A stretch of DNA of 64,000 bases. It comes from an uncultured candidate division Zixibacteria bacterium (GTDB taxonomy: Bacteria; Zixibacteria; MSB-5A5; UBA10806; 4484-95). How positions within the stretch are numbered: position 1 is the stretch's first letter; each line of letters begins with the position of its first letter. Made by a program: the position numbers and the translations under genes. Positions 23,284 through 37,737 of the stretch are shown here, in pieces. The notes beneath the pieces are model-generated. The model saw only the letters and a list, made by a program, of their open reading frames with translations. It had not been told where the DNA came from and made no database searches. The DNA is taken from NCBI GenBank assembly GCA_963668625.2, contig CAXXKA010000004.1, positions 160,001 to 224,000 on the forward strand, in the 5' to 3' direction.

Positions 23284-23670
23284 TTAGCTGGTGCCTCTCA
23301 GTTTTGCCTCTGTCTTCGATATTAACCGATCGACCTTGCGGTTAACGCAGGCACGCGCCACTCGCTCGGCGGTATCTTCTCCCACACCGGTTACCTCAAT
23401 TATTTTATCGATCGCTTTATCGAGCCAGACCGACCAATGAGCATCGGGATAACGACCGGCGAAATAGTCAGTGACATCATCGGCAATAACCAGCAGGTGA
23501 TGCGCCGTGCTGCGCGCCAGCTCGGTTTTCAAAAGCGGCAGCAGGTATTTTTTAGCAATGAATCCGAGGGCGATTATAAGAAGCGAAATAACCGCCTCGA
23601 GACCTTTATCGCCGATAAATCCGAATATGCTGCCGAACAAACCGGCTTTGATTACGATTAACTCCTGCAT
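23284..23670 (-). CDS. Small membrane protein, holin-like (LL-H-type architecture)
   Basis: N-terminal hydrophobic helix (AVISLLIIALGFIAKKYLLP) followed by an amphipathic helical domain; last gene of the cluster. Confidence 0.45.
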   Translation of the reverse strand: MQELIVIKAGLFGSIFGFIGDKGLEAVISLLIIALGFIAKKYLLPLLKTELARSTAHHLLVIADDVTDYFAGRYPDAHWSVWLDKAIDKIIEVTGVGEDTAERVARACVNRKVDRLISKTEAKLRGTS

Positions 23671-23707
23671 TTATCCTCCTGTGATATTTATCATTATGAA
23701 ATTGAAT

Positions 23708-25096
23708 TTATTGAAGCTCCCAGCCGGGGTATTGAGGCACGCTTCTATTTATCCGATAGATCACACCCTCATCATTTTTGACAGTGAACAGGTATTTCAA
23801 ATCGGGATCGGATAGAAGCGGGCTGGAAATGATATCCATACACCAGTAACCCGAGCTATCGGTGTGGGCAGATTTGGTAAACGGGGTGATAACGGCATTA
23901 CCGAAACGAACGGGATGATACTCCCTGGGAATCTCGGCGGTGATCGTGATACCCGACAAGCTATCGCCCGAGATATCATACACCCAACCATAAACGCGGC
24001 ACAGTCCCGGCAGCGGCGGCTCGCCCGGATCGAATCGTCCCATGTACAGGCTGTCGGTTCCGCCGCCCTCCTCGACAACCAGCGTATCGAGTATCTGGTT
24101 GTGACCGTTGGCGGTCAGCTCGATCCAGTAGCTATCGGGATCTAGCGCTAAATATATCACGCCATCATTGTCGGCAACGATGCCGGAGGCTTTCAATGTC
24201 GTTTGATCCAGCGATCTCACACTCAATCGCGCACCCTGCAAACGCGATAAATCGGTTGCCGAAAATACGATCAATGTCTCCGGTTCGGTTCCGCCACCGG
24301 GAATGGCTACCGATACTAAATCATCCCTGATATTATTACCCGGGCCGGCCATACCGGAATAGTAACCGAGTTTATCGTGAATCGAGGTGTAGCCATCCAG
24401 AGTATGACCATGTTTGCCGACATAAATGCGCACGGTATCGAGCTGGTCTTTTATATTGCCGGTACCGGCGCAGCCATCATAGCCAAGCCCCAGCTTCATG
24501 TTCAGAGTCGGGATCGGCATTGAGCGGAAGGGGCTGCCCACCCAGGCGTATATCGAATCCGCCCTCATGGCGACCTCGAGCAATGAATCGGGGATAGAGC
24601 CGGCGGCTATGGCATAATGAGCGAACGATCCGGCCCCGGTATCGACAACAGCCGAATCAGCCATCAACGCGGACAGTATGGCATTGTAAATATCGAGTGA
24701 ATCGAGTTGTTGATCCAATGGGTTCTGCCCTACATAGTAGTTATGATTGGCCATCGAGTAATAATTGCCGTTGCCCGAACCGCAGGCATGTACGATATAC
24801 TGCCCGATATTTTCGCCGGCGCGATATCTTTTCATGTATAAACCGCCACTGTACCCAAACATGCCGGGTGAACTAATTGTATCGGCGGTGATCGTATCGC
24901 CGCCGGGAGAGTACCGATATATGAATAGAGTATCCGGCTGCTCGAATTTCAACGCCAGCGAATCCCACATACTGATATACACCCACACCGAATCATCAGC
25001 AGAGTCGTCGCCGTTATCGTAGTATCCTAAAAAATCCGCCATCGTAAATGCGGCGCCCAATAAGCAAATCAACAATATCGCAAACAGTTTTCTCAT
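23708..25096 (-). CDS. Signal-peptide-bearing protein of the phage-like cluster, with C-terminal Ig/carboxypeptidase-regulatory-like domains
   Basis: MRKLFAILLICLLGAAFTMA|D; internal duplicated motif KLG..Y.G.AG.G.NI.D.L; C-terminal CRVYGWVYD...TDSSGYW. Confidence 0.6.
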   Translation of the reverse strand: MRKLFAILLICLLGAAFTMADFLGYYDNGDDSADDSVWVYISMWDSLALKFEQPDTLFIYRYSPGGDTITADTISSPGMFGYSGGLYMKRYRAGENIGQYIVHACGSGNGNYYSMANHNYYVGQNPLDQQLDSLDIYNAILSALMADSAVVDTGAGSFAHYAIAAGSIPDSLLEVAMRADSIYAWVGSPFRSMPIPTLNMKLGLGYDGCAGTGNIKDQLDTVRIYVGKHGHTLDGYTSIHDKLGYYSGMAGPGNNIRDDLVSVAIPGGGTEPETLIVFSATDLSRLQGARLSVRSLDQTTLKASGIVADNDGVIYLALDPDSYWIELTANGHNQILDTLVVEEGGGTDSLYMGRFDPGEPPLPGLCRVYGWVYDISGDSLSGITITAEIPREYHPVRFGNAVITPFTKSAHTDSSGYWCMDIISSPLLSDPDLKYLFTVKNDEGVIYRINRSVPQYPGWELQ

Positions 25097-35941: not shown

Positions 35942-36040
35942 ATGATAGTATTCCGATCTACTTTTATTCAGAGTTTAAAGATAAACTGATGACCCCATCT
36001 TGTATCCGAAAGGCTCGAACGGGTTCACCTGATTATGCAA

Positions 36041-36463
36041 TCACGCCAACTCCTGCTGCCTGATCTCATTGAGTAATTCCAATAACAGGTTTTCGACATC
36101 GGTCTTGTCGGCAATCTTCTGCTTTATCTCGATTGCCTTAAAACCATGCTCCAATTTCAAACTGTATTTTGATTCGGCCAACTCCTCGAATACCCGTCGT
36201 ACTACCTCATCCAAAAACGCGCTATCCGCATTAGCCTCTGTCTTGATAGCCAGCCCATTTTTTTTATCGGAGACGGTCTTTTTCGGTGATTTCTTTTTGG
36301 GCTTCTTTTCGGATTTCGGGGCATGTTCGGCAAAATGATTCGATAAATCATCCTCGGTGATTTTCAAACCACGCCTGTTGGCCCAATTGACCACCCGGTC
36401 AGGACGCCAGTTTCGCTTCTTATTGATTTCGCTTAGCAGATCGCTAGAACAGATATCGCACAT
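36041..36463 (-). CDS. Terminase small subunit-like protein with N-terminal CxxC...HxxxH Zn finger
   Basis: MCDICS...LSNHFAEH, Lys-rich linker and helical oligomerisation-like C-terminus; directly upstream of TerL. Confidence 0.55.
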   Translation of the reverse strand: MCDICSSDLLSEINKKRNWRPDRVVNWANRRGLKITEDDLSNHFAEHAPKSEKKPKKKSPKKTVSDKKNGLAIKTEANADSAFLDEVVRRVFEELAESKYSLKLEHGFKAIEIKQKIADKTDVENLLLELLNEIRQQELA

Positions 36464-37737
36464 CAGATAATACCCGGCTCGATCTTTTCGAGCTTATCTT
36501 TGGCCTCGTCCTTATCCAATAACCCGGCCTTGTACTGCTCGATAATATTCTCGCCCATAATACTTTCGGCCTTGTAGCGCTCCAGCGAACCGAACACCCG
36601 GCGATTATCGAAACAAACATCAACCTCCCCCGATACTCCGCGTAAAGCCATTTCGAGCTCTAAAAGCCATTTCAAAAAGCCTCGGGCTTTCTCCTGTACC
36701 GCTATAATCTGACGCATCATTAACTCGAATTTGAACTTGGCCCAGGTCTGGGTAGTACCGAAAGAATAGCCCAGCATGAACGGATCGAGATGCATCCCCG
36801 CGCAAATATCCTCAACCAGTGCGCGATGGTACAAATACCAGCCGCTGGTAGCCGTACCCGAGGGGCTGATGGTGTTGATTTTCACGTCATCCCAGGTGAT
36901 TGCCGAATCGGCGGGTTTGAGATCGCCCATCAATGAAACGGTATCATCGAAATAGCGATTAGCCCGTTCGATATAATCTTTGTTCGACTCACCCGGCAGT
37001 TTCTCGGGCTTGGTAAGCTGTACCTGCACCCGCTGATAGCCCGAACGCTCGAGTGACTGCGACATATCGTTTATCAGTTTCTGCTCCAGATGCGAGATAA
37101 ACCCGATAGTGGAAAGCATACTGATACCACGCGGATCGAACGAGGACGAGTCCATACCCGTATAATAAAACGATCCCGGCTCGAGTTTTATTCTGCGAGA
37201 GTCTTTCTCGAAAAATATCTGCCAGCCTTTGCGCGTATTCTCGAACGACAGCATCCGGGCATCGCAGGCGTTGAAATCCTCGATACCGTCTCCGGAGTGA
37301 TTGAGTATGACCTCGCCCGCGAAACAGCCATCGATGAAAAGCGAGCGGAAGAAAAGGTTAACCAGAGATTCGATCCCGCCGGTTTTCTGGTATGCCAACG
37401 GCGAGAGAATCCGGTCGAAATGTTTGACGATTCTCTGTCCGGCCACGCTCGTGGCGCTGTCGAACTTGAACTCGACCGGGGCGGCGCATAGCCGTGTCCA
37501 GAGCCAGATCGAGCCGTTAAGTATGGGGATATTTTCAGTCAAAAATCGATAAATACTTATCCTGTCCTGGCGACGGTAACCATAACCATCGGGCAGATTA
37601 ATCTCGAAACTTCTGATACGAGGATTTTTCGCAGGCGTTAAAGGATCGACAGTTTTCGATCTGGCAAGCAGCGATTTGAGCTTATCTTTTATCATATCCG
37701 CTCCCGGGGTAAAAATGATATTATGATATTTTAACAA
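36463..37737 (-). CDS. Phage portal protein
   Basis: IYRFLTENIPIL, LFIDGCFAGEV, DPRGISML, EDICAGMHLDPFMLG.S..TT.TWA; size (~410-424 aa) and position next to the terminase. Confidence 0.8.
   Translation of the reverse strand: MLKYHNIIFTPGADMIKDKLKSLLARSKTVDPLTPAKNPRIRSFEINLPDGYGYRRQDRISIYRFLTENIPILNGSIWLWTRLCAAPVEFKFDSATSVAGQRIVKHFDRILSPLAYQKTGGIESLVNLFFRSLFIDGCFAGEVILNHSGDGIEDFNACDARMLSFENTRKGWQIFFEKDSRRIKLEPGSFYYTGMDSSSFDPRGISMLSTIGFISHLEQKLINDMSQSLERSGYQRVQVQLTKPEKLPGESNKDYIERANRYFDDTVSLMGDLKPADSAITWDDVKINTISPSGTATSGWYLYHRALVEDICAGMHLDPFMLGYSFGTTQTWAKFKFELMMRQIIAVQEKARGFLKWLLELEMALRGVSGEVDVCFDNRRVFGSLERYKAESIMGENIIEQYKAGLLDKDEAKDKLEKIEPGII

Follow-up and report, generated by a model that had tools for sequence, protein, structure and literature searches.

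We analysed a 64,000-nucleotide stretch of the genome of an uncultured candidate division Zixibacteria bacterium (GenBank assembly GCA_963668625.2, contig CAXXKA010000004.1, positions 160,001 to 224,000 of the forward strand; hereafter the window, numbered from its first letter). At 23284-37737, on the minus strand, it holds a run of tightly spaced open reading frames (ORFs), all of them open, for a phage-type capsid and DNA-packaging system; an earlier note, made from the sequence alone, had read this cluster as a domesticated system resembling a gene transfer agent (GTA). Pfam and PHROGs scans of the window ORFs give family support to four genes, those for the portal protein, the large terminase subunit (TerL), a head decoration protein and the major capsid protein (MCP), and six further conserved genes encoding proteins of 475, 127, 270, 415, 462 and 128 amino acids (aa) lie 3′ of the MCP gene. 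From the comparison of the cluster across the phylum we conclude with high confidence that it is a domesticated phage particle system that its hosts inherit vertically. The features of the locus, from its high-coordinate end downwards, are as follows:

36463-37737, minus strand: portal protein
36041-36463, minus strand: TerS-like protein of 140 aa, so named by position only, with a Lys-rich linker and a helical C-terminus
34619-35941, minus strand: TerL, with ATPase and nuclease domains
33132-34618: spacer of GC content 0.43-0.44, with dispersed genome repeats at 34322-34382 and an unverified 79-aa ORF at 33554-33793
32295-33131, plus strand: PEP-CTERM secreted protein, a host-type gene inside the cluster
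31256-31990, minus strand: prohead-protease-like protein of 244 aa
30968-31252, minus strand: 94-aa coiled-coil protein with a single hydrophobic helix at its N-terminus
30568-30981, minus strand: scaffold-like, helical protein of 137 aa
30139-30555, minus strand: head decoration protein
29026-30132, minus strand: HK97-type MCP
28985-29012, minus strand: terminator-like hairpin
27549-28976, minus strand: 475-aa beta-propeller protein, BNR/sialidase-like, with one Asp-box and a C-terminal beta-sandwich
27169-27552, minus strand: 127-aa protein, a neck or connector candidate
26360-27172, minus strand: 270-aa protein, a neck or adaptor candidate
25096-26343, minus strand: 415-aa putative lipoprotein
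23708-25096, minus strand: 462-aa Sec-exported protein
23284-23670, minus strand: 128-aa protein, holin-like by shape only

Homologues of these genes were followed in 20 loci fetched around the MCP gene and in 80 further loci (the genomes of the two sets overlap); per-gene counts refer throughout to eligible loci, that is, those with enough flanking sequence. The portal gene matches phrog_3753 (E 1.5e-32) and phrog_30703 (4e-16), and its orthologues in relatives are 35-70% identical; because these align only from residue 12-15 onwards, the true start is probably the ATG at 37695. TerL matches Terminase_6N (1.4e-5) and phrog_2 (4.9e-27). An alignment of 12 Zixibacteria TerLs spanning the phylum revealed invariant columns for Walker A (G-N-R-W-G-K-S), Walker B (D-E), the S-T-P motif and the nuclease-domain residues Asp281, Asp334, Asp340 and Asp410, so that the enzyme is, as judged by motif conservation, catalytically intact, in agreement with what the earlier note had read from the Walker motifs and nuclease aspartates of the single sequence. 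The TerS-like gene, which overlaps the end coordinate of the portal gene (36463), has one weak PHROGs match (phrog_614, 0.0067) and no Pfam or NCBIfam match, and it is weakly conserved, tblastn detecting it in six of the 20 fetched loci. A weak TerS-like match seen in several distant families stands after the 127- and 270-aa genes, not beside TerL.

Among the head genes, the MCP is assigned by phrog_3922 (8e-61) and by a match to Phage_capsid_4 (1.3e-5) that, at 26 bits, falls just under the 27-bit cut-off; its public annotation is 'hypothetical protein'. Directly after the MCP stop lies the terminator-like hairpin, with a 12-bp stem and a T run, which probably attenuates read-through and would thereby lower expression of the downstream genes. 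The decoration protein matches phrog_4588 (5.4e-9) and phrog_122 (0.005), and its gene is present in 73 of 74 eligible loci. For the 244-aa protein, whose gene is found in 57 of 59 loci, the match is to a PHROGs family of unknown function (phrog_16951, 1.3e-14), and sequence and profile searches of Pfam and the PDB gave none; a prohead protease role can reasonably be inferred, rather than assigned by family, from homologues that distantly related phages carry between portal and MCP and from the invariance of His83, Ser136 and a Cys/His cluster. In distant families this protein is fused to a longer scaffold-like C-terminal extension (500-777 aa). The 137-aa protein, without a family match and detectable by tblastn only in the window's own family, is a putative scaffold on account of its sequence character and its position before the decoration and MCP genes, and the 94-aa protein, also without family support, is kept in 56 of 66 loci. 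NCBIfam and Pfam scans of the cluster ORFs of uncertain function returned no matches. The earlier note had listed a full head module here; portal, TerL, MCP and decoration protein stand by family, the TerS-, scaffold- and holin-like genes by position or character only, and the protease by the reasoning given above.

Genes that would mark a prophage were sought with Pfam in 38 ORFs across the 64-kb window and with PHROGs in the 17 cluster ORFs and two 5′ neighbours. No integrase, repressor, replication, tail tube, sheath, tape measure, baseplate or endolysin family was found among these ORFs (38 with Pfam, 19 with PHROGs), and no flanking direct repeats of at least 18 nt were detected beyond chance-sized pairs inside ORFs. 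The genome as a whole (4.3 Mb, 95.9% complete) contains no match to tail sheath (phrog_23) or Baseplate_J, and of its 12 tyrosine-recombinase matches none lies on the window's contig (C4). The earlier note had reported neither tail tube, tape measure, baseplate, endolysin, integrase, attachment (att) sites nor replication genes at the locus, and had proposed a search for tail genes in the rest of the genome; the window scans and the two genome-wide tail searches agree with its observation.

The evidence that carries our conclusion comes from the distribution and evolution of the cluster. The MCP was found in 56 of the 61 closest genomes and in 190 of 201 genomes sampled phylum-wide (172 of 180 high-quality genomes; 103 of 108 genera), nearly always as a single match, and TerL, nearly always in one copy, in 191 of the same 201; both were present in 183. 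Identity to the window's MCP drops with taxonomic rank, from 83-87% within the genus to 74-81% within the family, 66-71% within the order and 53-64% beyond. Pairwise identities of MCP and RpoB are closely correlated (Pearson/Mantel r 0.88, a value reached by 0 of 9999 permutations), a comparison that covers a 513-residue RpoB segment in 15 genomes and, since kin are not independent, is descriptive. The MCP and RpoB trees agree on families, order and sister pairs, save for one weakly supported branch, and this congruence, read from the two sequences, is the pattern of vertical descent. Ratios of non-synonymous to synonymous substitution (dN/dS) of 0.03-0.13 were obtained for eight cluster genes in one pair of genomes (G013/G021, dS 0.75-1.3), namely those for the MCP (0.048), the decoration and protease-like proteins and the 94-, 475- (0.089), 270-, 127- (0.115) and 462-aa (0.060) proteins. 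Between the window and a congener, MCP, TerL and portal are 83%, 77% and 70% identical, whereas the flanking proteins are less conserved (tetratricopeptide-repeat (TPR) protein, 55%; BamB-like protein, 51%; helicase, 47%).

Gene order is conserved as well, running portal-(TerS-like)-TerL-variable spacer-protease-like-94 aa-decoration-MCP-475 aa-127/270 aa-exported protein(s)-462-aa homologue-128-aa homologue, and the TPR gene adjoins the portal gene in several families. The portal gene lies within 10 kb of the MCP gene in 31 of 46 loci and TerL in 31 of 48. The cluster spans about 14.7 kb in the window, and some relatives have its parts as much as 1.4 Mb apart: in six genomes (G004, G019, G117, G048, G201 and G149) TerL lies 12 kb to 1.4 Mb away from the head genes on the same contig. 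The split packaging module stays intact, as in multi-locus GTAs. No homologue of a prophage-marking window gene adjoins the cluster in the 100 related loci, among which the scan for integrase and tail families covered one (L024).

A conventional origin, be it from a plain defective prophage or from a common Zixibacteria phage that integrated independently more than once, would be in keeping with the GC content of the head region (0.49-0.53, above the 0.43-0.48 of much flanking DNA), with tRNA genes on the far side of the S8 protease gene, 5.5 kb from the low-coordinate (3′) end of the cluster, and with the listing in IMG/VR of one cluster fragment as 'viral' (L114); against this stand an MCP shared by 190 of 201 genomes whose tree matches that of RpoB, dN/dS of 0.03-0.13 with all ORFs open, the lack of an integrase, of att repeats and of any close free-phage relative, and host neighbours conserved across families. 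Distribution and phylogeny already contradict this explanation, which we regard as exceedingly improbable. An encapsulin nanocompartment is ruled out by the presence and conservation of portal and TerL. Vertical inheritance across the phylum together with retention under selection makes a GTA-like particle, not a dying prophage, the most likely product of the locus. Of the features that define a GTA, the cluster has those that sequence data can test: particle genes encoded by the host, a lack of genes for replication or integration, and vertical descent under purifying selection. The earlier note had preferred a GTA-like system to a decaying prophage, had suggested examining synteny and vertical inheritance, and had reckoned with a cluster confined to one strain, lodged inside a complete prophage in relatives or evolving under relaxed selection. 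The cluster proved not to be strain-specific (the MCP and TerL counts above), no complete prophage surrounded it in the 100 loci (with integrase and tail families scanned in L024 only), dN/dS gave no sign of relaxation in the one informative pair, and the conserved gene order, the MCP/RpoB correlation and the matching trees speak for vertical inheritance; distribution, RpoB congruence and dN/dS hence favour the reading of the note, and DNA transfer is what we infer from it.

The three genes directly after the MCP gene bear on the form of the particle. The 475-aa protein, whose gene is present in 74 of 75 eligible loci, was predicted with confidence by AlphaFold2 (pLDDT 92.8, pTM 0.88). In a Foldseek search of the PDB it matched first an 817-aa chain from the portal-tail complex of podophage LME-1 (E 3e-11; query template-modelling score (TMq) 0.33), followed by sialidases and propeller lectins (TMq 0.4-0.49), and a PDB profile search gave a sialidase at E 0.008. 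The complex of this Legionella phage is described as consisting of portal, adaptor, nozzle and fibre (PMC12407071). The Zixibacteria genes resemble a T7-like podophage tail in that they occupy the adaptor/nozzle position after the MCP gene and in that the 475-aa protein has chain M of the LME-1 complex as its first-ranked fold match in the PDB. Compared with chain M (817 aa), the 475-aa protein is about 340 residues shorter, and the match, at TMq 0.33, is weak; sialidases and lectins match the propeller better, and no fibre gene was recognised. No homologue of the 475-aa protein was found beside related viral MCPs. In the nearest outside lineage an 855-aa protein comes after the MCP; kinship of the 475-aa protein with it was considered and rejected (hhalign probability 0.2%).

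The start of the 127-aa gene overlaps the stop of the 475-aa gene; it is kept in 64 of 68 eligible loci, and its product has no family or PDB match and ESM Atlas scores below 0.8. The 270-aa protein (65 of 68 loci) combines N-terminal immunoglobulin-like (Ig-like) beta-sandwich repeats with a C-terminal three-helix bundle (AlphaFold2 pLDDT 84.8). Its Foldseek matches are phage structural proteins only, including a phi812 baseplate chain (2.5e-6, with a low template-modelling score (TM) of about 0.3) and, in BFVD, a 'major tail protein' (7e-9) and a 'tail protein/RBP' (receptor-binding protein; 1.7e-7), both at TM of about 0.3; a PDB profile search gave no match, and the sole 'tail tube' match is a 40-residue Ig-like repeat below the cut-off. 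Homologues of the 270-aa protein lie near an MCP on two non-Zixibacteria contigs, L124 (29% identity, 3e-32) and L216 (25%, 3e-10). The 127- and 270-aa genes stand in one arrangement in the window's taxonomic order and in family f3 (window and L013-L022) and in the inverse arrangement in the other families (L023-L032). A predicted complex of the 270-, 127- and 475-aa proteins had a non-specific score, a control with chain 1 replaced having scored equally high. With moderate confidence, these structure predictions and gene positions point to a neck and a minimal distal structure formed by the 475-, 127- and 270-aa proteins; there is about an even chance that a short distal structure is built from the propeller protein. 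Because three virion-type proteins after the MCP are conserved and constrained, the particle is possibly, again with moderate confidence, short-tailed rather than tail-less. Of the claim in the earlier note that the system has no tail, the absence of tube, sheath and tape measure therefore holds, but 'tailless' is too strong for a cluster with a propeller and two neck-like proteins after its capsid gene.

The remaining three genes are tightly coupled to the operon and encode exported or membrane proteins, which the earlier note had folded into its adaptor and holin-like labels. Translation of the 415-aa gene shows a signal sequence ending in Cys; the corresponding position in relatives is occupied by ORFs with signal-peptide-like starts whose sequence is poorly conserved between lineages. 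The 462-aa protein has a variable N-terminal part and a conserved C-terminal region of about 200 aa resembling a CarboxypepD_reg beta-sandwich (match at 0.0016, below cut-off), and its gene is present in 50 of 54 eligible loci; in the ESM Atlas, viral clusters come nearest to it and a phage_tail_N cluster follows at the lower score of 0.80, all of which are leads only. With starts corrected, nearly all the 462-aa orthologues and the variable ORFs preceding them were seen to begin with signal peptides. The 128-aa protein joins an N-terminal membrane helix to a conserved soluble domain; it has no family match in Pfam, PHROGs or NCBIfam, and its gene gave a tblastn match in 32 of 51 eligible loci. 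The envelope module made up of these three proteins shows no recognisable muralytic domain; it may be a release (lysis-like) cassette or may supply envelope-side docking factors. These exported and membrane proteins are the most unusual and least understood part of the cluster and are out of the ordinary for a virion operon; to our knowledge, described GTAs offer no parallel to its Sec-exported members.

Several observations weigh against a domesticated, GTA-like particle system. The system is known from its genes alone, and Zixibacteria are uncultured. Sec signals on two of the proteins do not suit a particle whose parts come together in the cytoplasm, and scans of the cluster ORFs recognised no endolysin, tail fibre or injection protein. 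Low-TM matches (about 0.3-0.5) underlie the assignments as spike/nozzle and neck, and a beta-propeller yields many generic matches. Purifying selection is measured in one informative pair of genomes, the dS of the window/L016 pair and much of that of L014/L015 having been saturated or unreliable and discarded. No conserved operator was found in upstream regions by a search for shared k-mers upstream of the portal, protease-like, TerL and decoration genes; words common to 10 of 42 portal-upstream regions were dropped as candidates, these probably coming from close relatives. In the window, no convincing sigma-54 site was seen by eye in the upstream regions, and a sigma-70 scan was not enriched over shuffled sequences (27 sites against 25.5 expected).

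The cluster is also incomplete in some lineages. Among the 201 genomes, seven have the MCP only, eight TerL only and three neither, many of these misses coming from fragmented assemblies; in family f6 the MCP is missing in both sampled genomes and TerL in the one searched. The clearest case is RBG-1 (G049; a single contig, 99% complete), which keeps MCP and portal with a propeller gene truncated to 311 aa and in which TerL was not found by single sequence, by profile or by phrog_2 (generic P-loop match only). At its locus (L024; G049:C1:1550392-1569947) the 8 kb between the protease-like and portal genes contain no TerL and hold genes for a host-type secreted SBBP/BNR propeller, an outer-membrane protein (OMP) beta-barrel and a GSDH-dockerin protein. 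Genomes without TerL or MCP, or both, RBG-1 included, indicate that the system is dispensable and sometimes decaying; it can be lost, as expected of a non-essential function. Besides RBG-1, the genus of G055 and G138 is a lineage that has lost TerL.

These same findings are those on which a different use of the capsid would draw, in which an extracellular or envelope-associated particle or compartment, for instance, operates with the exported proteins and does not transfer DNA, TerL and portal being kept for assembly or for a specific nucleic acid. Two Sec-exported proteins and one membrane protein, conserved and tightly coupled in the operon, would suit such a role, as would a complete genome that keeps head genes without detectable TerL, but the truncated propeller gene of RBG-1 fits decay better, the catalytic motifs of TerL are invariant, and its gene is retained in 191 of 201 genomes. 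Moreover, we know of no role for portal and TerL other than genome packaging in tailed phages. We therefore hold re-use of the capsid for a purpose other than DNA transfer to be highly improbable.

Outside Zixibacteria, relatives of the capsid are distant. The best MCP match in the GenBank phage collection is 33% identical, and all but one of the best 80 IMG/VR loci reach at most 36% MCP identity. The exception, L114 (IMGVR_UViG_3300027896_005586, 11112 bases; MCP 59%), is a fragment of a Zixibacteria-type cluster running from the portal gene through the 475-aa gene; with the locus annotated as 'hypothetical protein' and this fragment filed as a virus, counts of Zixibacteria prophages or viruses can be inflated. 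A library built at 50% identity places all full-length Zixibacteria MCPs in a single cluster (668 bits), and the next full-length representative scores 324 bits with at most 40% identity. In the collections searched there is, by sequence identity, no close viral relative, outside identity being at most 36-40%.

Of the viral relatives whose context is usable, the nearest, L118, encodes a tail sheath (1.2e-64) and a Dit-like protein and hence a contractile tail, so that the ancestor of the Zixibacteria system may have been long-tailed. A head-only gene content is also that of capsid-forming phage-inducible chromosomal islands (cf-PICIs), mobile elements of patchy distribution whose head-only genes comprise their own terminase, portal, protease, MCP and connectors and which carry integrase, replication and repressor genes. 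The cluster could by analogy be a domesticated satellite-like, tail-hijacking or anti-phage capsid system, in which tail-less, DNA-filled capsids with connector proteins would acquire the tails of an infecting phage, or would titrate or sabotage its assembly, in defence or for helper-dependent transfer. A gene content that, like that of these islands, is head-only and free of tail genes agrees with this, as does an ancestor that, from L118, would probably have had a long tail now missing; yet the cluster, unlike cf-PICIs, has no integrase, replication or repressor genes, its vertical, single-copy, phylum-wide inheritance is unlike that of a mobile satellite, and the conserved propeller directly after the MCP suggests a distal structure of its own. 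We rate such a satellite-like, tail-hijacking or anti-phage system as quite improbable.

Two further observations were made among the outside relatives. L124 (IMGVR_UViG_3300009431_001290, 8420 bases), with an MCP of 33% identity, a portal of 31%, a protease-like gene of 40%, a 121-aa ORF, the homologue of the 270-aa protein and a 439-aa ORF, has no visible tail genes and may be another head-only element or a domesticated cluster of a different lineage. The nearest outside MCP clusters are 35-40% identical, and one of them (P0277, cluster of P0125; 35-36%) includes a protein of Ca. Hinthialibacter antarcticus (Ca. Hinthialibacterota in the NCBI taxonomy). Contigs as long as 309 kb carry this cluster, a length that points to capsid genes residing in the chromosome of a further candidate phylum; the scan for the context of the nearest outside MCP clusters in metagenomes met mostly contigs under 3 kb.

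The surroundings of the cluster are those of a host chromosome, as the earlier note had observed: an S8 protease gene lies at one flank and genes for a TPR protein, a BamB/PQQ-like propeller and a DEAD helicase at the other. Between TerL and the protease-like gene the cluster is broken by the opposite-strand PEP-CTERM gene (PEP-CTERM, 8.4e-8) and the low-GC spacer. The PEP-CTERM gene occupies the same site, with 48-67% identity, in three of the four fetched loci of the same family (L013, L015 and L016; not L014), and elsewhere only weak matches (25-27%) were seen; the shared site indicates that the insertion is old within that family. The spacer varies among relatives in length and content, and an Rfam scan of 22000-39000 gave no match in it or its surroundings. 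Exact 16-mers at 34322-34382 and at 37909-37924, upstream of the portal gene, are present four to eight times in the genome, which is consistent with a dispersed element of the repetitive extragenic palindromic (REP) type in the spacer and the portal upstream region; the host REP-like repeats described in the earlier note are confirmed in part, as dispersed 16-mers at these two sites. A low-GC stretch (0.34-0.37) at 14000-18000 adjoins genes for tRNA-Leu(taa) (17539-17624) and tRNA-Cys (17727-17799). DUF488 and S8 protease genes separate it from the cluster by 5.5 kb, and no connection between the two was seen.

Comparison with known GTAs by gene content sets the system apart. The Rhodobacter capsulatus agent (RcGTA) consists of host-encoded head and packaging genes without replication or integration genes, is inherited vertically over a deep clade under purifying selection, can have parts at separate loci and has a siphovirus-type tail with tube, tape measure and distal proteins. 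The Zixibacteria cluster shares with GTAs of this type a host-encoded head and packaging set, vertical inheritance, purifying selection and separable loci. It differs in having no tail tube, tape measure or distal/hub families, an MCP of another capsid family (phrog_3922/Phage_capsid_4), a detachable portal-TerS-TerL block upstream of the head genes, an operon that includes exported proteins, and conservation throughout a phylum; without siphovirus tail genes it is not of the RcGTA type. Literature searches for Zixibacteria together with gene transfer agent, or with capsid and terminase, returned no description of the locus, and in a search for Zixibacteria and prophage the terms were absent from titles and abstracts.

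In design the nearest analogue is the GTA of Faecalibacterium prausnitzii (FpGTA). There, particles of about 40 nm containing about 8.5-9 kb of DNA were characterized by proteomics (PMC12946183). A compact operon encodes TerS-like protein, TerL, portal, scaffold, MCP and conserved hypothetical proteins, the agent is probably podovirus-like with no visible tail on purified particles, and it belongs to one Firmicutes genus, in which a second operon supplies baseplate, fibre, holin and endolysin (PMC12946183). The two systems have in common a compact head and packaging operon, a probably podovirus-like form, conservation in a host clade and possibly a second locus. In contrast to FpGTA as described there, the Zixibacteria system comes to us as genes, with no recognisable endolysin or fibre; its distal candidate is a sialidase-like propeller, two of its members are Sec-exported, and it belongs to another phylum, with broader conservation.

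Taken together, these data make it rather probable, as judged from gene content and conservation, that the domesticated system makes short-tailed, DNA-filled particles that transfer host DNA in the manner of a GTA. In such a mechanism a subpopulation of cells would express the operons under host control; procapsids would form on the portal and then mature; TerL and the small TerS-like protein would fill the heads with host DNA in headful fashion; and the 270- and 127-aa proteins would close the portal vertex. The beta-propeller protein could serve as a minimal, podovirus-like spike or nozzle recognising a surface glycan, the membrane and exported proteins would release the particles or serve in docking or uptake on the envelope side, and the particles would deliver their DNA to related cells. 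A bolder form of this proposal, which we consider unlikely as a whole, is that the cluster encodes a two-compartment apparatus for gene exchange, in which a cytoplasmic DNA-packaging capsid with a glycan-binding propeller spike is co-inherited with an envelope module (lipoprotein, membrane protein and a Sec-exported protein whose beta-sandwich is tail-fibre-like) for exit or for docking and uptake, and that, as a possibility, the capsid of Zixibacteria and those encoded in the chromosomes of other candidate phyla go back to one very old domestication.

Only a handful of independently domesticated GTAs are known to us, most of them within one class, order or genus. A system fixed throughout Zixibacteria would, if our reading is true, be among the oldest and most broadly conserved domestications of a virus, and it would be unusual both in using a sialidase-like propeller for its distal structure and in having exported proteins encoded within a virion operon. 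Were the apparatus to have two compartments, donor and recipient functions would be inherited together across the whole phylum. More generally, GTA-like biology would be extended to candidate phyla related to the Fibrobacteres-Chlorobi-Bacteroidetes (FCB) group, and uncultured communities of sediment and groundwater, for which there is no genetics, would have a route of gene flow.

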